From: Escherichia coli
Lineage (GTDB): Bacteria > Pseudomonadota > Gammaproteobacteria > Enterobacterales > Enterobacteriaceae
DNA: 64,000 nt
Assembly: GCF_009931435.1 (NCBI RefSeq)
Contig: NZ_CP043414.1
Reading direction: 5' to 3' (one strand)
Shown: positions 34,253 through 42,654 of the stretch, piece after piece
How the letters are laid out: every line of letters begins with the position of its first letter
Position numbering within the stretch: the stretch's first letter is position 1
Program-made: the position numbers and the translations under genes
The notes under the pieces: generated by a model
The model's database searches: none
What the model was told of the DNA's origin: nothing
Seen by the model: only the letters and a program-made list of their open reading frames with translations

Positions 34253-35341
34253 TTAGCCGTGACGGCGTTCGAACTCAATCATGAAGTCTGTCAGCGCTTT
34301 AACGCCTTCCAGAGGCATTGCGTTATAAATTGACGCACGCATACCGCCGACCACACGATGCCCTTTCAGGGCATGCAGCCCCGCAGCAAAAGACTCTTCA
34401 AGGAACAATTTGTCAAGCGCACTGTCCGCCAACTGGAACGGCACGTTCATCCGCGAACGGTTAGCTTTCGCCACGTCATTGCGGTAGAAATCGCTGTTAT
34501 CAATCACCCCATACAGCAGTTCTGCTTTTTGCTGATTGATTTTATCCATTGCAGCTACACCGCCGTTCGCTTTCAGCCATTTAAAGACCAGACCAGACAG
34601 ATACCAGGCAAATGTCGGCGGCGTGTTAAACATTGAGTCGTTATCGTTAAGGATGGAATAATCCAGAATCGACGGACAAGCGATATTCGCTTTACCCAGT
34701 AAGTCTTCACGAACGATGACGATTGTCAGGCCCGCCGGGCCGATATTTTTCTGTGCGCCAGCATAAATCACACCGTAACGACTGACGTCAATTGGACGGG
34801 AAAGAATCGTTGAAGAGAAGTCGGCTGCAACCACCACTTCTTTACCAAAGTCTGGCGTTTCGTCGATGGCGATACCATCGATGGTCTCATTTGGGCAGTA
34901 ATGCATATAAGCGGCATTATCAGAGAGCTGCCATTCACGCATTGGCTTAACCGCACGAAGACCATCAACAGTCACTTTGGCGTCAAAGACATTTGGCTTG
35001 CAGTATTTTTTCGCTTCTTTAATGGCACTTGCCGCCCAGTAACCGGCATCAACATAATCTGCAGTGGTTTTATCACCAAGAATATTCAGCGGAACAGCAG
35101 CAAACTGACCGCGACCACCGCCGTGGCAGAACAATACTTTATAGTTGGAGGGGATATTAAGAAGATCGCGAAAATCCTTCTCGGCTTCCTCTGCAACCTG
35201 AATGAACTCTTTACCACGGTGGCTCACTTCCATCACCGACGTACCAAGACCGTTCCAGTCGCGCAGTTCCTGTTGAGCCTGTTTAAGCACCTCTGCCGGT
35301 AGCATTGCCGGACCAGAACTAAAATTGAAGATTTGAGCCAT
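34253..35341 (-). CDS. serC: Phosphoserine/phosphohydroxythreonine aminotransferase
   Basis: 362-aa [49 protein letters not shown]...; matches SerC. Confidence 0.97.
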
Positions 35342-35539
35342 TTCCCCTCACCACGTTGCGTTGCCATTAACCCACGGACAATCGATTGCGACCGCGGGTA
35401 ATACATTATTCCTGTGGCTATCGGTTTTATCATTCAGTGGCGCGCATCGCAATGGGTAAAACAGTCGAGGGCAAAAATGCGGCACGCGTCACACAATAGA
35501 ATCTCTCGGATTATTGTCCAAAAACCGATTTTTTTGCTG

Positions 35540-36232
35540 TCAGGTCACCCGTTTAGCCCGACTTGCCTTCGTCCATTCTGGATTTGCACAGCGCGGACAT
35601 AATTGTTTTTCCCCTGCGTTCATATGAATGATCTCACTGCAACGGATGCAAGCATAGTCCGCCGACTCAGGCACCACTTTGTAACGCTGAGTACAGTCAC
35701 TGGGTAAAATAAGTAATCCCGGTTTCACCTTGTCATCTTCAAAGAAATAGACACTGATTTGCCCGTTGGTTTCGAGAATCGCCAGACGTACCTGCCCCAA
35801 CTGCTCCACTCCACGCAGTCGCAGCTCCATAAAGAACTCAAATTCCGTCATGTTGGAGTTATTAAGTTTCGACCAGGCCAGCTCACCATCCTCAATAATG
35901 ACAACCGGCTTGCCTTCCAGAAGATCCTCCAGTTTTTCACTGTGCGCCATCAACCACATTACCAGACGGTATAACAACGCCAGAGTAATAAAGACGATAA
36001 GCACCGGAACCATCGGCACATCATCATAAAACGCCACATCCCCCGCCGCTGACCCCAGCGTCAGAATGATTAACACTTCAAACAGCGACATCTGCCGCAC
36101 ACCGCGTCTGCCGGTCATTTTGAGGAATAAAAAGACCAGTACAAAGGTATAAAGACTACGTAGTGCAACTTCGCCAAGGAAATCAAAAGGCACTTTATCA
36201 AATGCCATACGGTGGAGATCGAATGCCTTCAT
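35540..36232 (-). CDS. ycaP: DUF421-family inner membrane protein YcaP
   Basis: 230-aa ORF with N-terminal transmembrane helices; matches YcaP. Confidence 0.88.
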   Translation of the reverse strand: MKAFDLHRMAFDKVPFDFLGEVALRSLYTFVLVFLFLKMTGRRGVRQMSLFEVLIILTLGSAAGDVAFYDDVPMVPVLIVFITLALLYRLVMWLMAHSEKLEDLLEGKPVVIIEDGELAWSKLNNSNMTEFEFFMELRLRGVEQLGQVRLAILETNGQISVYFFEDDKVKPGLLILPSDCTQRYKVVPESADYACIRCSEIIHMNAGEKQLCPRCANPEWTKASRAKRVT

Positions 36233-36361
36233 TTTTATGCTCTTATCGTGGTTTATCCGCTAAAAGCATAGTCAACAGTTCATCTGCCTGGCGGCGGTGA
36301 TAGCGCCTTTGAGATAAAACCCGTATTATTGCGCGCTTTCCGTACGACTAAAGTGATTTTC

Positions 36362-38122
36362 ATGACGCAAACATTTATCCCCGGCAAAGATGCCGCTCTG
36401 GAAGATTCCATCGCTCGCTTCCAACAAAAACTTTCAGACCTCGGTTTTCAGATTGAAGAGGCCTCCTGGCTGAATCCCGTGCCTAACGTCTGGTCTGTGC
36501 ATATTCGCGACAAAGAGTGCGCACTGTGTTTTACCAACGGTAAAGGCGCAACCAAAAAAGCGGCGCTGGCTTCTGCACTCGGTGAATATTTCGAGCGTCT
36601 GTCTACCAACTACTTTTTTGCTGACTTCTGGCTGGGCGAAACCATCGCCAACGGTCCATTCGTGCATTATCCCAACGAAAAATGGTTCCCACTGACCGAA
36701 AACGACGATGTACCAGAAGGGCTGCTCGATGACCGTCTGCGCGCATTTTACGATCCGGAGAATGAACTGACCGGCAGCATGCTGATTGACCTACAATCTG
36801 GTAACGAAGATCGTGGTATTTGCGGTCTGCCGTTTACGCGCCAGTCCGACAATCAGATCGTTTATATTCCGATGAATATCATTGGTAACCTGTACGTTTC
36901 TAACGGTATGTCCGCTGGCAATACCCGCAACGAAGCGCGCGTTCAGGGATTATCTGAAGTTTTCGAACGCTACGTGAAAAACCGCATTATTGCTGAAAGC
37001 ATCAGCCTGCCAGAGATCCCGACAGACGTGCTGGCGCGTTATCCAGCGGTGGTTGAAGCGATCGAAACACTGGAAGCGGAAGGTTTCCCGATCTTCGCTT
37101 ATGATGCCTCGCTTGGCGGTCAATATCCGGTGATCTGCGTGGTACTGTTCAATCCAGCTAACGGTACCTGCTTTGCATCCTTCGGTGCACATCCTGATTT
37201 TGGCGTTGCACTGGAACGTACCGTGACCGAGTTGCTGCAAGGCCGCGGTCTGAAAGATTTGGATGTGTTTACTCCGCCAACCTTCGATGATGAAGAAGTC
37301 GCTGAACATACTAACCTCGAAACGCACTTTATCGATTCCAGCGGTTTAATCTCCTGGGACCTATTCAAGCAGGATGCTGATTATCCGTTTGTGGACTGGA
37401 GCTTCTCAGGCACCACGGAAGAAGAGTTTGCTACGCTGATGGCTATCTTCAACAAAGAAGATAAAGAAGTTTATATTGCCGATTACGAGCATCTGGGCGT
37501 TTATGCTTGCCGCATTATCGTGCCTGGCATGTCCGATATTTATCCGGCAGAAGATCTGTGGCTGGCGAATAACAGCATGGGCAGCCATTTACGTGAAACG
37601 ATTCTTTCACTCCCAGGCAGCGAGTGGGAAAAAGAAGATTACCTGAACCTCATCGAGCAACTGGATGAAGAAGGTTTTGATGACTTTACCCGCGTGCGTG
37701 AGCTATTGGGTCTGGCAACCGGGCCGGATAACGGCTGGTACACTCTGCGTATCGGTGAATTAAAGGCTATGTTGGCGCTGGCTGGTGGCGATCTGGAACA
37801 GGCTCTGGTCTGGACTGAATGGACGATGGAATTTAACTCATCAGTGTTCAGTCCGGAACGCGCCAACTATTATCGCTGTCTGCAAACGTTGTTATTACTG
37901 GCACAGGAAGAAGACCGCCAACCACTGCAATATCTGAATGCCTTCGTTCGTATGTATGGCGCAGATGCCGTAGAAGCCGCCAGTGCGGCAATGAGCGGTG
38001 AATCGGCGTTTTATGGCTTGCAACCCGTAGATAGCGATCTGCACGCGTTTGCTGCACATCAGTCGTTGTTGAAGGCCTACGAAAAGCTGCAGCGCGCCAA
38101 AGCAGCATTCTGGGCAAAATAA
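36362..38122 (+). CDS. ycaO: YcaO-domain protein (ATP-dependent amide-activating fold; linked to S12 beta-methylthiolation)
   Basis: ORF 36329..38122; start at ATG 36362 (MTQTFIPGKDAALEDSIARFQQK...), 586 aa. Confidence 0.93.
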   Translation: MTQTFIPGKDAALEDSIARFQQKLSDLGFQIEEASWLNPVPNVWSVHIRDKECALCFTNGKGATKKAALASALGEYFERLSTNYFFADFWLGETIANGPFVHYPNEKWFPLTENDDVPEGLLDDRLRAFYDPENELTGSMLIDLQSGNEDRGICGLPFTRQSDNQIVYIPMNIIGNLYVSNGMSAGNTRNEARVQGLSEVFERYVKNRIIAESISLPEIPTDVLARYPAVVEAIETLEAEGFPIFAYDASLGGQYPVICVVLFNPANGTCFASFGAHPDFGVALERTVTELLQGRGLKDLDVFTPPTFDDEEVAEHTNLETHFIDSSGLISWDLFKQDADYPFVDWSFSGTTEEEFATLMAIFNKEDKEVYIADYEHLGVYACRIIVPGMSDIYPAEDLWLANNSMGSHLRETILSLPGSEWEKEDYLNLIEQLDEEGFDDFTRVRELLGLATGPDNGWYTLRIGELKAMLALAGGDLEQALVWTEWTMEFNSSVFSPERANYYRCLQTLLLLAQEEDRQPLQYLNAFVRMYGADAVEAASAAMSGESAFYGLQPVDSDLHAFAAHQSLLKAYEKLQRAKAAFWAK

Positions 38123-38129
38123 AATCAAA

Positions 38130-38149
38130 TAGCCTACGCAATGTAGGCT
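38130..38149 (+). terminator. Hairpin downstream of ycaO (weak terminator candidate)
   Basis: TAGCCTAC-gcaa-TGTAGGCT immediately after the ycaO stop, without a strong T-run. Confidence 0.4.
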
Positions 38150-38453
38150 TAATGATTCGTCTGAGTTATATTACGGGGCGTTTTTTTAATGCCCCGCTTT
38201 ACATATATTTGCATTAATAAAATAATTGTAATTATAAAGTTAAATATCGATAATTTGTATTTAATAAATACGATCGATATTGTTACTTTATTCGCTTGGT
38301 GCTCCCTTTTAATTAACTGTTTTAGCGGAGGATGCGGAAAAAATTCAACTCATTTGTTAATTTTTAAAATTTATTTTTATTTGGATAATCAAATATTTAC
38401 TCCGTATTTGCATAAAAACCATGCGAGTTACGGGCCTATAAGCCAGGCGAGAT

Positions 38454-38467
38454 ATGATCTATATCAA
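38454..38467. promoter_or_regulatory. FNR-type site upstream of focA
   Basis: ATGAT-CTAT-ATCAA matches TTGAT-N4-ATCAA at 9 of 10 positions, with a TATAAT hexamer at 38477..38482; the focA-pflB operon is FNR-activated. Confidence 0.55.
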
Positions 38468-38527
38468 TTTCTCATCTATAATGCTTTGTTAGTATCTCGT
38501 CGCCGACTTAATAAAGAGAGAGTTAGT

Positions 38528-39385
38528 GTGAAAGCTGACAACCCTTTTGATCTTTTACTTCCTGCAGCAATGGCCAAAGTGGCCGAAGAGGCAGGTGTCT
38601 ATAAAGCAACGAAACATCCGCTTAAGACTTTCTATCTGGCGATTACCGCCGGTGTTTTCATCTCAATCGCATTCGTCTTCTATATCACAGCAACCACTGG
38701 CACAGGAACAATGCCCTTCGGCATGGCAAAACTGGTTGGCGGCATTTGCTTCTCTCTGGGGCTGATTCTTTGTGTTGTCTGCGGAGCCGATCTCTTTACT
38801 TCCACAGTGTTGATTGTTGTTGCTAAGGCGAGTGGGCGCATCACCTGGGGTCAGTTGGCGAAAAACTGGCTAAATGTCTATTTTGGCAACCTGGTCGGCG
38901 CACTGCTGTTTGTACTTTTAATGTGGCTTTCCGGCGAGTATATGACCGCGAATGGTCAATGGGGACTAAACGTCCTACAAACCGCCGACCACAAAGTGCA
39001 CCATACTTTTATTGAGGCCGTCTGCCTTGGTATCCTGGCAAACCTGATGGTATGTCTGGCAGTATGGATGAGTTATTCTGGCCGCAGCCTGATGGATAAA
39101 GCGTTCATTATGGTGCTGCCGGTCGCGATGTTTGTTGCCAGCGGTTTTGAGCACAGTATCGCAAACATGTTTATGATCCCGATGGGTATTGTAATCCGCG
39201 ACTTCGCATCTCCGGAATTCTGGACCGCTGTCGGTTCTGCACCGGAAAATTTTTCTCACCTGACCGTGATGAACTTCATCACTGATAACCTGATTCCGGT
39301 TACGATCGGTAATATTATCGGCGGTGGTTTGTTGGTTGGGTTGACATACTGGGTCATTTACCTGCGTGAAAACGATCACCATTAA
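38528..39385 (+). CDS. focA: Formate channel FocA (FNT family)
   Basis: ORF 38189..39385; start placed at the in-frame GTG 38528 giving (M)KADNPFDLLLPAAMAKVAEEAGVYKATKHP..., 285 aa; the upstream in-frame extension is AT-rich promoter DNA. Confidence 0.9.
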   Translation: MKADNPFDLLLPAAMAKVAEEAGVYKATKHPLKTFYLAITAGVFISIAFVFYITATTGTGTMPFGMAKLVGGICFSLGLILCVVCGADLFTSTVLIVVAKASGRITWGQLAKNWLNVYFGNLVGALLFVLLMWLSGEYMTANGQWGLNVLQTADHKVHHTFIEAVCLGILANLMVCLAVWMSYSGRSLMDKAFIMVLPVAMFVASGFEHSIANMFMIPMGIVIRDFASPEFWTAVGSAPENFSHLTVMNFITDNLIPVTIGNIIGGGLLVGLTYWVIYLRENDHH

Positions 39386-39439: not shown

Positions 39440-41722
39440 ATGTCCGAGCTTAATGAAAAGTTAGCCACAGCCTGGGAAGGTTTTACCAAAGGTGACTGGC
39501 AGAATGAAGTAAACGTCCGTGACTTCATTCAGAAAAACTACACTCCGTACGAGGGTGACGAGTCCTTCCTGGCTGGCGCTACTGAAGCGACCACCACCCT
39601 GTGGGACAAAGTAATGGAAGGCGTTAAACTGGAAAACCGCACTCACGCGCCAGTTGACTTTGACACCGCTGTTGCTTCCACCATCACCTCTCACGACGCT
39701 GGCTACATCAACAAAGCGTTGGAAAAAGTTGTTGGTCTGCAGACTGAAGCTCCGCTGAAACGTGCTCTTATCCCGTTCGGTGGTATCAAAATGATCGAAG
39801 GTTCCTGCAAAGCGTACAACCGCGAACTGGACCCGATGATCAAAAAAATCTTCACTGAATACCGTAAAACTCACAACCAGGGCGTGTTCGACGTTTACAC
39901 TCCGGACATCCTGCGTTGCCGTAAATCCGGTGTTCTGACCGGTCTGCCAGATGCTTATGGCCGTGGTCGTATCATCGGTGACTACCGTCGCGTTGCGCTG
40001 TACGGTATCGACTACCTGATGAAAGACAAATACGCTCAGTTCACCTCTCTGCAGGCTGATCTGGAAAACGGCGTAAACCTGGAACAGACTATCCGTCTGC
40101 GCGAAGAAATCGCTGAACAGCACCGCGCTCTGGGTCAGATGAAAGAAATGGCTGCGAAATACGGCTACGACATCTCTGGTCCGGCTACCAACGCTCAGGA
40201 AGCTATCCAGTGGACTTACTTCGGCTACCTGGCTGCTGTTAAGTCTCAGAACGGTGCTGCAATGTCCTTCGGTCGTACCTCCACCTTCCTGGATGTGTAC
40301 ATCGAACGTGACCTGAAAGCTGGCAAGATCACCGAACAAGAAGCGCAGGAAATGGTTGACCACCTGGTCATGAAACTGCGTATGGTTCGCTTCCTGCGTA
40401 CTCCGGAATACGATGAACTGTTCTCTGGCGACCCGATCTGGGCAACCGAATCTATCGGTGGTATGGGCCTCGACGGTCGTACCCTGGTTACCAAAAACAG
40501 CTTCCGTTTCCTGAACACCCTGTACACCATGGGTCCGTCTCCGGAACCGAACATGACCATTCTGTGGTCTGAAAAACTGCCGCTGAACTTCAAGAAATTC
40601 GCCGCTAAAGTGTCCATTGACACCTCTTCTCTGCAGTATGAGAACGATGACCTGATGCGTCCGGACTTCAACAACGATGACTACGCTATCGCTTGCTGCG
40701 TAAGCCCGATGATCGTTGGTAAACAAATGCAGTTCTTCGGTGCGCGTGCAAACCTGGCGAAAACCATGCTGTACGCAATCAACGGCGGCGTTGACGAAAA
40801 ACTGAAAATGCAGGTTGGTCCGAAATCTGAACCGATCAAAGGCGACGTCCTGAACTACGATGAAGTGATGGAGCGCATGGATCACTTCATGGACTGGCTG
40901 GCTAAACAGTACATCACCGCACTGAACATCATCCACTACATGCACGACAAGTACAGCTACGAAGCCTCTCTGATGGCGCTGCACGACCGTGACGTTATCC
41001 GCACCATGGCATGTGGTATTGCTGGTCTGTCCGTTGCTGCTGACTCCCTGTCTGCAATCAAATATGCGAAAGTTAAACCGATTCGTGACGAAGACGGTCT
41101 GGCTATCGACTTCGAAATCGAAGGCGAATACCCGCAGTTTGGTAACAACGACCCGCGTGTAGATGACCTGGCGGTTGACCTGGTAGAACGTTTCATGAAG
41201 AAAATTCAGAAACTGCACACCTACCGTGACGCAATCCCGACTCAGTCTGTTCTGACCATCACTTCTAACGTTGTGTATGGTAAGAAAACTGGTAACACCC
41301 CAGACGGTCGTCGTGCTGGCGCGCCGTTCGGACCGGGTGCTAACCCGATGCACGGTCGTGACCAGAAAGGTGCTGTAGCATCTCTGACTTCCGTTGCTAA
41401 ACTGCCGTTTGCTTACGCTAAAGATGGTATCTCCTACACCTTCTCTATCGTTCCGAACGCACTGGGTAAAGACGACGAAGTTCGTAAGACCAACCTGGCT
41501 GGTCTGATGGATGGTTACTTCCACCACGAAGCATCCATCGAAGGTGGTCAGCACCTGAACGTTAACGTGATGAACCGTGAAATGCTGCTCGACGCGATGG
41601 AAAACCCGGAAAAATATCCGCAGCTGACCATCCGTGTATCTGGCTACGCAGTACGTTTCAACTCGCTGACTAAAGAACAGCAGCAGGACGTTATTACTCG
41701 TACCTTCACTCAATCTATGTAA
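39440..41722 (+). CDS. pflB: Pyruvate formate-lyase (formate C-acetyltransferase 1)
   Basis: 760-aa [55 protein letters not shown]... with the C-terminal glycyl-radical motif RVSGYAV. Confidence 0.98.
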
Positions 41723-41913: not shown

Positions 41914-42654
41914 ATGTCAGTTATTGGTCGCATTCACTCCTTTGAATCCTGTGGAACCGTAGACGGCCCGGGTATTCGCTTTATCACCTTTTTCCAGGGC
42001 TGCCTGATGCGCTGCCTGTATTGTCATAACCGCGACACCTGGGACACGCATGGCGGTAAAGAAGTTACCGTTGAAGATTTGATGAAGGAAGTGGTGACCT
42101 ATCGCCACTTTATGAACGCTTCCGGCGGCGGCGTTACCGCATCCGGCGGTGAAGCAATCCTGCAAGCTGAGTTTGTTCGTGACTGGTTCCGCGCCTGCAA
42201 AAAAGAAGGCATTCATACCTGTCTGGATACCAACGGTTTTGTTCGTCGTTACGATCCGGTGATTGATGAACTGCTGGAAGTAACCGACCTGGTAATGCTC
42301 GATCTCAAACAGATGAACGACGAGATCCACCAAAATCTGGTTGGAGTTTCCAACCACCGCACGCTGGAGTTTGCTAAATATCTGGCGAATAAAAATGTGA
42401 AGGTGTGGATCCGCTACGTTGTTGTCCCAGGCTGGTCTGACGATGACGATTCAGCGCATCGCCTCGGTGAATTTACCCGTGATATGGGCAACGTTGAGAA
42501 AATCGAGCTTCTCCCCTACCACGAGCTGGGCAAACACAAATGGGTGGCGATGGGTGAAGAATACAAACTTGATGGTGTTAAACCACCGAAGAAAGAGACC
42601 ATGGAACGCGTGAAAGGCATTCTTGAGCAGTACGGTCATAAGGTAATGTTCTAA
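41914..42654 (+). CDS. pflA: Pyruvate formate-lyase activating enzyme (radical SAM)
   Basis: ORF 41887..42654; start at ATG 41914 ([23 protein letters not shown]...), 246 aa; CxxxCxxC cluster motif CLMRCLYC. Confidence 0.96.

Follow-up and report, generated by a model that had tools for sequence, protein, structure and literature searches.

The window analysed here, a 64-kb stretch of Escherichia coli DNA, carries on its plus strand an intact ycaO coding sequence (36362..38122), which starts with an ATG at 36362 and encodes 586 amino acids followed by a TAA stop codon. Its start and stop are identical to those annotated by RefSeq in the closest E. coli genome, and the gene was found in 5425 of 5426 complete genomes of the species. 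It is divergent from ycaP (35540..36232, minus strand), which encodes a membrane protein of the DUF421/YetF family (Pfam DUF421, E 5.9e-17), and is followed on its own strand by focA (38528..39385, GTG start, 634 bits with the FocA model NF008069), pflB (39440..41722) and pflA (41914..42654), all three being conserved downstream context and not partners. Open reading frames, protein models and annotation agree on these neighbours, as given in the original prediction, whose intergenic coordinates (36233..36361 and 38123..38527) also proved exact. The entire window is collinear with the annotated E. coli chromosome NZ_AP027764, the alignment covering it without any gap.

The YcaO protein and its K-12 counterpart

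The identity of the protein as the founding YcaO, previously assigned from the sequence, is confirmed by the NCBIfam equivalog model NF040716 (915.9 bits, cutoff 700) and by a match to the E. coli YcaO structures PDB 4Q84, 4Q85 and 4Q86 over the full length, residues 1-586. Two domains compose it: the ATP/Mg2+-binding catalytic domain (aa 59-391, 36536..37534; Pfam PF02624, E 1.3e-75, 255.2 bits for a cutoff of 25.7, profile positions 1-325 of 325 covered), and YcaO_C (aa 407-581, 37580..38104; PF18381, E 2.7e-65, 219.9 bits), which is TPR-like, typical of E. coli-type YcaO, and serves dimerisation and possibly uL16 binding (PMC13063428). A check of ATP/Mg2+-site membership found E75, E78, E199, E202, R203, R286 and E290 all retained as in K-12, and K9, S16, S71 and N187 are also the same; the checked residues are mostly invariant or nearly so among homologues of 38-90% identity. 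E202, whose replacement in the E202A variant impairs the E. coli enzyme, EcYcaO (PMC13063428), is a Glu in the window protein and is invariant in the homologue alignments. The protein is strongly acidic (pI 4.38, 92 Asp + Glu versus 42 Lys + Arg), a feature described as distinctive of the uL16-modifying YcaO group and shared by the window protein at the level reported for that group (pI about 4.4, PMC13063428). Most full-length representatives of the distant homologues have a pI of 4.3-5.8.

YcaO of E. coli K-12 (b0905, UniProt P75838) likewise has 586 aa and is 98.98% identical to the window protein, with the same domains, neighbours, acidity and checked residues, including E202. The two differ by six conservative substitutions (T166I, A221T, G249A, N347S, S455P and A548S). 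All six lie outside the checked residues, the alignment columns invariant among homologues and the 12 interface positions that Rice et al. (PMC13063428) mutated. The difference is larger at the DNA level, with 85 nucleotide changes in ycaO (4.8% divergence), of which 76 fall on the third base of a codon; the window copy is under purifying selection. The serC-ycaP-ycaO block as a whole is an unusually divergent allele, with about 95% DNA identity to K-12 where the flanking genes reach 98-99%, whereas the ycaO-focA spacer differs from K-12 at only 5 of its 405 positions. The window gene is in all these respects an ordinary intact E. coli ycaO.

Stand-alone state of ycaO and content of its flanks

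The absence of a partner gene, proposed earlier from the immediate neighbourhood, holds for the whole 64 kb. The annotation of NZ_AP027764 over the window-equivalent stretch, from pepN to cydC, contains no E1/ThiF-like, TfuA, azoline dehydrogenase or ThiS/MoaD-like gene, and neither rimO, rpsL nor rplP; no RRE gene was found in the 64 kb either. No partner-type gene recurs among the inspected homologue loci of 43-53% identity, and no sulfur-transfer neighbour among those of 43-54%; ycaP itself is a variable upstream neighbour, present by tblastn at most Enterobacteriaceae loci and at few loci of other families.

Every open reading frame of at least 20 codons touching either flank was scored for conservation. 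This search had been proposed in the original prediction, which named a precursor or partner gene in the flanks as its refutation; neither was found, and no small frame is conserved as coding. Some of the flank frames occur in Escherichia only, and the rest run on the strand opposite conserved parts of ycaO or focA; in none does the Cys/Ser/Thr content exceed 0.24. The divergent ycaP/ycaO spacer (36233..36361, 129 bp) holds no conserved small ORF: of 11 relatives, one has its 45-aa frame intact, one its 43-aa frame and six its 33-aa frame, the last being antisense to the 5' end of ycaO. Three minus-strand ORFs (36326..36427, 38476..38577 and 38523..38609) are intact in many species, but were rejected as candidates: they overlap conserved stretches of ycaO or focA in antisense and are not rich in Cys, Ser or Thr. 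No RNA family of Rfam was detected in or beside ycaO.

The spacer between ycaO and focA (38123..38527, 405 bp) is AT-rich (30.6% GC) and is the promoter and regulatory region of focA-pflB, outside any YcaO system. Two terminator-like hairpins follow the ycaO stop codon on the plus strand (38131-38149 and 38174-38196), the RNA fold of 38116-38215 reaching -30.4 kcal/mol (z = -4.69), with equally good folds in 0 of 200 shuffles; the stem of the first hairpin was also flagged by a terminator scan. A promoter-like TTTACA-17-AATAAT site lies at 38198-38226 (plus strand), whose hexamers and spacing are those of the constitutive sigma-70 promoter listed within this spacer (PMC3946193). Towards focA, conservation climbs to 0.94-1.00 over 38453-38527 among 12 Enterobacteriaceae sequences, and an FNR-like site (ATGATCTATATCAA, 38454-38467, plus strand) is identical in Klebsiella.

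One frame of this spacer might seem to tell another story. A 113-codon open frame on the plus strand (38189..38527), in phase with focA, is unusually long for DNA of such composition (P about 0.0008 in shuffled sequences) and contains a Cys/Gly/Ser patch, CFSGGCGKNS, so that it could be imagined as the hidden precursor of a cryptic RiPP cluster built around ycaO. This frame contains one in-frame stop in K-12, two in another E. coli and, in ten further enterobacterial genera, 4-11 stops and/or frameshifts; in a comparison of 66 species, focA is preceded by a median of just 9 open codons (range 0-86). The Cys/Ser/Thr fraction of the frame is 0.14, and its start codon (ATG) is hidden within the 3' arm of the second hairpin, before the hexamers of the mapped promoter. 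It is rejected here both as a hidden precursor and as an N-terminal extension of focA, and is regarded as a lineage-specific accident, not a gene. The other small ORFs are unconserved apart from the antisense ones, and the 64 kb lack the E1-like, RRE and dehydrogenase genes of such clusters. The RiPP-cluster reading is contradicted by the conservation data, leaving it a negligible probability, in line with the original prediction, which had argued against such a cluster.

The window protein is likewise distant from the TOMM/azoline cyclodehydratases (SagD/BalhD/McbD type), with which the E. coli enzyme has in common the YcaO ATP-binding fold and amide O-phosphorylation: the corresponding model TIGR03604 gives 46.8 bits for a cutoff of 219.25. 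TOMM systems use E1-like or Ocin-ThiF partners, whereas the window has no partner, dehydrogenase or precursor gene. A Pro-rich C-terminal motif is a feature of YcaO cyclodehydratases; the C-terminus of the window protein (…KAAFWAK) is without it.

Thioamidation of uL16 and the S12 annotation

The direct substrate of YcaO had been considered unclear in the original prediction, a view now superseded. Thioamidation of uL16 by YcaO was proposed earlier by Watson et al. (PMC7550191), and Rice et al. (Biochemistry 2026, PMC13063428) reported that the E. coli enzyme directly thioamidates Met82 of this ribosomal protein. According to the latter study, the thioamide is lost in a delta-ycaO strain, which grows normally in LB and in M9, and purified EcYcaO supplied with ATP, Mg2+ and Na2S, a non-physiological sulfide, forms the thioamide on full-length uL16, which it binds with a Kd of about 10 nM. 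In a proteome-wide AlphaFold3 screen with YcaO, an ipTM of at least 0.8 was obtained only for uL16, uL29 and YcaO itself (PMC13063428). Nothing in the sequence data contradicts this function for the window gene, which very probably encodes an E. coli-type YcaO thioamidating uL16; from its near identity to the K-12 enzyme, we infer that the window copy does the same job.

In the mechanism published for the K-12 protein, the very acidic YcaO homodimer (pI about 4.4) captures free, folded uL16, itself very basic, through a broad electrostatic surface, and the uL16 loop formed by residues 70-93 inserts into the active site. The backbone carbonyl of Met82 is there attacked by a sulfide equivalent and the resulting oxyanion phosphorylated by ATP; once phosphate departs, a thioamide links Met82 to Gly83 near the peptidyl transferase centre. 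The net change in uL16 is a sulfur in place of one backbone oxygen, and the reaction needs neither a partner (RRE, E1-like or TfuA) nor a precursor peptide.

The same chemistry is known from methanogens, in which a YcaO acting with TfuA thioamidates a glycine of McrA (TIGR03266, 'methan_mark_1'): like EcYcaO, this enzyme uses ATP to thioamidate the backbone of a whole protein and not of a RiPP peptide. The window protein scores just 40.1 bits with TIGR03266 (cutoff 365), and EcYcaO has the YcaO_C domain in addition relative to the McrA-type enzyme. The methanogen system includes TfuA, which is absent from the window and is not encoded by E. coli. Short peptides derived from McrA are substrates of the methanogen YcaO, whereas EcYcaO requires folded full-length uL16 (PMC13063428).

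An older reading, in which YcaO acts mainly as an accessory factor for the methylthiolation of uS12 Asp88 by RimO, still gives the protein its name in RefSeq and NCBIfam, and the original prediction found the isolated gene to fit it. It draws on the co-purification of YcaO with tagged uS12, as related in PMC13063428, and on a decrease of S12 modification from 99% to 84% in a delta-ycaO strain (Strader 2011, as reported in PMC13063428). This modification is barely altered in the delta-ycaO strain and abolished in a delta-rimO strain, and RimO alone modifies a uS12 peptide analogue in vitro (PMC13063428). AlphaFold3 gives non-confident ipTM values for uS12 (0.31) and RimO (0.16), compared with 0.8 for uL16 (PMC13063428), and the window contains neither rimO nor rpsL. 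Altered ribosomes exerting a small, indirect effect would suffice to explain the data. The effect behind the S12 label is small and probably indirect; an accessory role as the main function of YcaO is very unlikely.

Linkage to focA-pfl and supply of sulfur

In 66 of 74 species loci (Enterobacterales and Aeromonas), focA lies downstream of ycaO in the same orientation, and in the other eight it is absent from that position; the genome scan, made with an eight-sequence alignment, returned relatives of 66-98% identity only. Watson et al. (PMC7550191) also remarked on this synteny. Beyond these relatives, one metagenomic homologue (45% identity) has an FNT-family gene and a PflB homologue downstream, and a PFL-like gene lies near another of 43% identity. 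The FNT family, which contains FocA, includes a hydrosulfide channel. The adjacency could on these grounds reflect a functional coupling of ycaO to focA-pflB-pflA, through anaerobic co-expression or hydrosulfide delivered via FocA, in addition to uL16 thioamidation.

The local organisation argues against such a coupling, with the terminator-like hairpins directly 3' of ycaO and promoters belonging to the spacer itself, and focA-pfl is transcribed independently of ycaO according to Sawers (2005), as cited in PMC7550191. The thioamide was detected in ribosomes of aerobic cultures (PMC7550191), and AlphaFold3 retained only uL16, uL29 and YcaO as confident partners of YcaO (PMC13063428). Neighbours are unrelated at other homologues of 44-53% identity, focA is missing downstream at the eight loci mentioned above, and gene order inherited among related taxa suffices for most of the pattern. 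We therefore hold a coupling to focA-pfl to be improbable.

A possible lead on the origin of the sulfur comes from a large family of OsmC/YcaO fusions (TIGR03549), found in Bacteriovoracales and relatives, whose YcaO part is 54% identical to the window protein. This part also passes NF040716 (866.6 bits), and the family is as acidic as the window protein (median pI 4.79). The fusions differ by carrying an OsmC domain (about 147 aa) at their N-terminus, which is lacking in the window protein according to Pfam and to TIGR03549 itself (681.3 bits for a cutoff of 900, with only profile positions 148-722 covered). Three cysteines of the OsmC domain are invariant in 120 of 120 fusion members, two of them aligning with the canonical OsmC cysteine pair. 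A thioredoxin-fold gene with a WCPPC motif, overlapping one homologue, was rejected as a candidate, its signal-peptide-like N-terminus arguing against a cytoplasmic partner.

Taken together, the ycaO-focA/pfl adjacency (66 of 74 species, and homologues of 43-45% identity) and the reactive cysteine pair kept by the fused OsmC domain could mean that sulfur is fed to the enzyme by a relay or a channel. Thioamidation would then draw its sulfur from a persulfide relay on a thiol protein, or from hydrosulfide handled through an FNT channel under anaerobiosis, a proposal to which we give little credence. If true, the stand-alone ycaO would have a hidden, unlinked partner.

The function of E. coli YcaO is already known, its substrate having been demonstrated in 2026. 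The stand-alone layout of its gene is what is expected of an enzyme modifying a whole protein: ycaO is alone because its substrate is encoded elsewhere, by rplP, and is not a neighbouring peptide. The widespread name "S12 methylthiotransferase accessory factor" misdescribes a uL16-thioamidating enzyme acting next to the peptidyl transferase centre, and the OsmC fusions, together with the synteny data, provide inexpensive leads on the sulfur donor, on the physiological role of the thioamide and on the ycaO-focA-pfl linkage.

Identity and integrity of the ycaO gene

The reading frame of ycaO is uninterrupted on the + strand and ends at 38122, the ATG at 36362 giving a protein of 586 aa in which Pfam recognises a complete YcaO domain (aa 59-391, E 1.3e-75) followed by YcaO_C (aa 407-581, E 2.7e-65). 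The sequence of the E. coli YcaO crystal structure (PDB 4Q84/85/86) matches its residues 1-586. The protein scores 915.9 bits with NF040716, the NCBIfam equivalog for E. coli-type YcaO (cutoff 700), and lies far under the cutoffs of both TIGR03604 (TOMM; 46.8 vs 219) and TIGR03266 (McrA thioamidation; 40.1 vs 365). Of 85 nucleotide differences from K-12, 76 affect third codon positions, a bias indicative of strong purifying selection, and the two proteins differ by six amino acids (98.98% identity). All six substitutions lie outside the columns that are invariant in the alignment of homologues, and they spare the 12 interface positions that Rice et al. mutated (PMC13063428). Position 202 is Glu, the residue replaced in the E202A variant of Rice et al. 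2026, and K9, S16, S71, E75, E78, N187, E199, R203, R286 and E290 are the K-12 residues. With a pI of 4.38 (92 Asp + Glu vs 42 Lys + Arg), YcaO is very acidic.

Of 5426 complete E. coli genomes, 5425 contain the segment 35400-38700 with identical gene calls, and a single one of the 5426 reaches at least 99% identity over it. The serC-ycaP-ycaO block (34253-38122) shares just 94.5-95.7% DNA identity with K-12, unlike aroA, focA, pflB, pflA and the ycaO-focA spacer (98-99%). From these identities, the block looks like a rare divergent allele block, probably recombined.

Thioamidation of uL16 and the S12 effect

The function of E. coli YcaO is already known from the literature. A 2-Å ribosome structure revealed that Met82 and Gly83 of uL16 are joined by a thioamide, for which YcaO was proposed as the candidate enzyme (Watson et al. 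2020, PMC7550191). AlphaFold3 screening of the whole proteome later predicted a single protein, uL16, with confidence in the YcaO active site; ribosomes of a ycaO deletion mutant were devoid of the thioamide, co-expression led to complete modification, and variants of the ATP site such as E202A were impaired (PMC13063428). Thioamidation of full-length uL16 by purified MBP-YcaO required Na2S, MgCl2 and ATP together; folded uL16 is bound with a Kd of 9.8 nM, and peptides of 11, 21 and 24 residues were neither bound nor modified (PMC13063428). The Klebsiella and Pseudomonas orthologues likewise thioamidate uL16 (PMC13063428). The reaction follows the general YcaO mechanism (PMC13063428): a nucleophile attacks the backbone carbonyl, whose oxygen is then phosphorylated in an ATP-dependent manner before the phosphate is eliminated. 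Since the YcaO of the window is 99% identical to the characterized protein, intact and equally acidic, we infer with high confidence that it has the same uL16-thioamidating function.

The database name referring to S12 rests on a pull-down and on a drop of S12 methylthiolation from 99% to 84% in the ycaO deletion mutant (PMC13063428). RimO modifies a uS12 peptide analogue in vitro without YcaO, the uS12 modification is abolished in a rimO deletion mutant, and complexes of YcaO with uS12 or RimO were not predicted with confidence (PMC13063428). We regard the effect of YcaO on S12 as minor and probably indirect. The original prediction had described a stand-alone gene with an accessory role in S12 modification and an unclear direct substrate; the first part holds, and the two others are outdated by uL16 thioamidation (PMC13063428).

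Genomic setting and intergenic sequences

As originally described, ycaO is preceded by aroA, serC and ycaP on the - strand and followed on the + strand by focA (GTG start at 38528), pflB and pflA, the two intergenic intervals being exactly 36233..36361 and 38123..38527. In alignment, E. coli NZ_AP027764 covers the full 64 kb of the window and leaves no sequence over; internal repeats of ftsK (57321-57515) match this reference at several offsets in BLAST. The genes annotated in this collinear sequence run from pepN to cydC; none of them is of the E1/ThiF-like, TfuA, azoline dehydrogenase or ThiS/MoaD-like type, in agreement with the claimed absence of partner enzymes, and rimO, rpsL and rplP are missing as well. 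This isolation of ycaO is explained by its substrate, a conserved whole protein that is encoded elsewhere and to which the surface of the enzyme binds directly. The sole Rfam match across the window is the enterobacterial sRNA STnc130 (52127-52261, +; 141.3 bits vs a gathering score of 55).

The absence of a precursor gene, also part of the original prediction, was borne out by a listing of all ORFs of 20 codons or more that reach into either flank and their alignment in K-12, another E. coli and ten other enterobacterial genera, which provided no conserved Cys/Ser/Thr-rich candidate. Cys + Ser + Thr content does not exceed 24% in any of them, and those wholly within a spacer are intact in Escherichia only. 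Three ORFs (36326..36427, 38476..38577 and 38523..38609, all -) are more widely intact but overlap, in antisense, the conserved 5' end of ycaO or of focA.

Ahead of its GTG start, the focA frame is free of stops for 121 codons, and an ATG at 38189 defines an in-phase extension of 113 codons (38189-38527, +) containing CFSGGCGKNS, a length unusual in DNA of 30.6% GC (shuffling, P about 0.0008). K-12 carries an in-frame TGA and another E. coli two stops, Klebsiella is open for just 12 codons upstream of focA, and ten other genera display 4-11 stops and/or frameshifts; among 66 species the open run ahead of focA spans 0-86 codons (median 9). Moreover, the ATG lies within the 3' arm of a hairpin and upstream of the spacer promoter hexamers. 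The frame is thus a lineage-specific accident and not a gene.

Two stable hairpins (38131-38149 and 38174-38196; joint fold -30.4 kcal/mol, z = -4.69) follow the ycaO stop. Sequence scanning located a promoter-like site, TTTACA-17-AATAAT (38198-38226), whose hexamers and spacing equal those of the constitutive sigma-70 promoter of the ycaO/focA spacer (Shimada et al., PMC3946193). PFL expression is controlled by FNR, ArcA, IHF and NarL (PMC2636881). An FNR-like site, ATGATCTATATCAA (38454-38467), and the TATAAT downstream of it are both identical in Klebsiella. Conservation of 38453-38527 across genera reaches 0.94-1.00, and the spacer differs from K-12 at 5 of 405 positions, vs 4.8% for ycaO itself. 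A detailed multi-promoter map of focA-pflB regulation has reportedly been established by Sawers and colleagues. Taken together, the hairpins, the promoter-like and FNR-like sites, their conservation and the known PFL control indicate that the spacer belongs to focA-pflB regulation and not to a YcaO system.

YcaO homologues and OsmC fusions

YcaO belongs to a large, well-conserved family, with 683 cluster representatives matching at E ≤ 1e-30, most full-length representatives having a pI of 4.3-5.8. Scanning a single genome of each species retrieved 80 loci in Enterobacterales, Aeromonas and Pasteurellaceae; of the 74 with sufficient downstream sequence, 66 have focA after ycaO in the same orientation, and ycaP is detected in most Enterobacteriaceae loci and in few of other families. 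A metagenomic homologue of 45% identity is followed by an FNT-family gene then a PflB homologue, the linkage is partly present at another of 43% identity, and neighbours are unrelated at other homologues of 44-53% identity. This gene order had been observed by Watson et al. (PMC7550191), who regarded the genes as unrelated in function, which we also consider the likelier reading.

No recurrent partner-type gene was found among the inspected loci. In a single case, a universal stress protein (Usp) gene lies immediately 3' of a 48%-identical homologue (L090:2419-2862), and the phenotype profile of the E. coli ycaO knockout is closest to that of uspG (Watson et al., PMC7550191); this proximity may be a coincidence. 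At another locus (L097:1799-3138), the stop codon of a homologue of 44% identity lies within a thioredoxin-fold gene (WCPPC motif), which is followed by a small unannotated ORF and then a C_GCAxxG_C_C family gene; the thioredoxin-like product is probably not a cytoplasmic partner, its N-terminus being signal-peptide-like.

TfuA is absent from E. coli (Rice et al., PMC13063428). In the large family TIGR03549 (Halobacteriovorax, Bacteriovorax and relatives), an OsmC domain is fused to YcaO, as in P0123 (L091:7001-9190) and 119 related proteins (P0285-P0403). The YcaO part of the fusion passes NF040716 (866.6 bits), and the family is as acidic as the YcaO of the window. Three OsmC-domain cysteines are kept in all 120 members examined, two of them aligning with the canonical OsmC cysteine pair. 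These fusions are unmentioned in Rice et al. 2026 (PMC13063428), and our literature search found no paper tying OsmC to YcaO function. As a hint provided by domain fusion, they may have a bearing on the identity of the sulfur donor in uL16 thioamidation.
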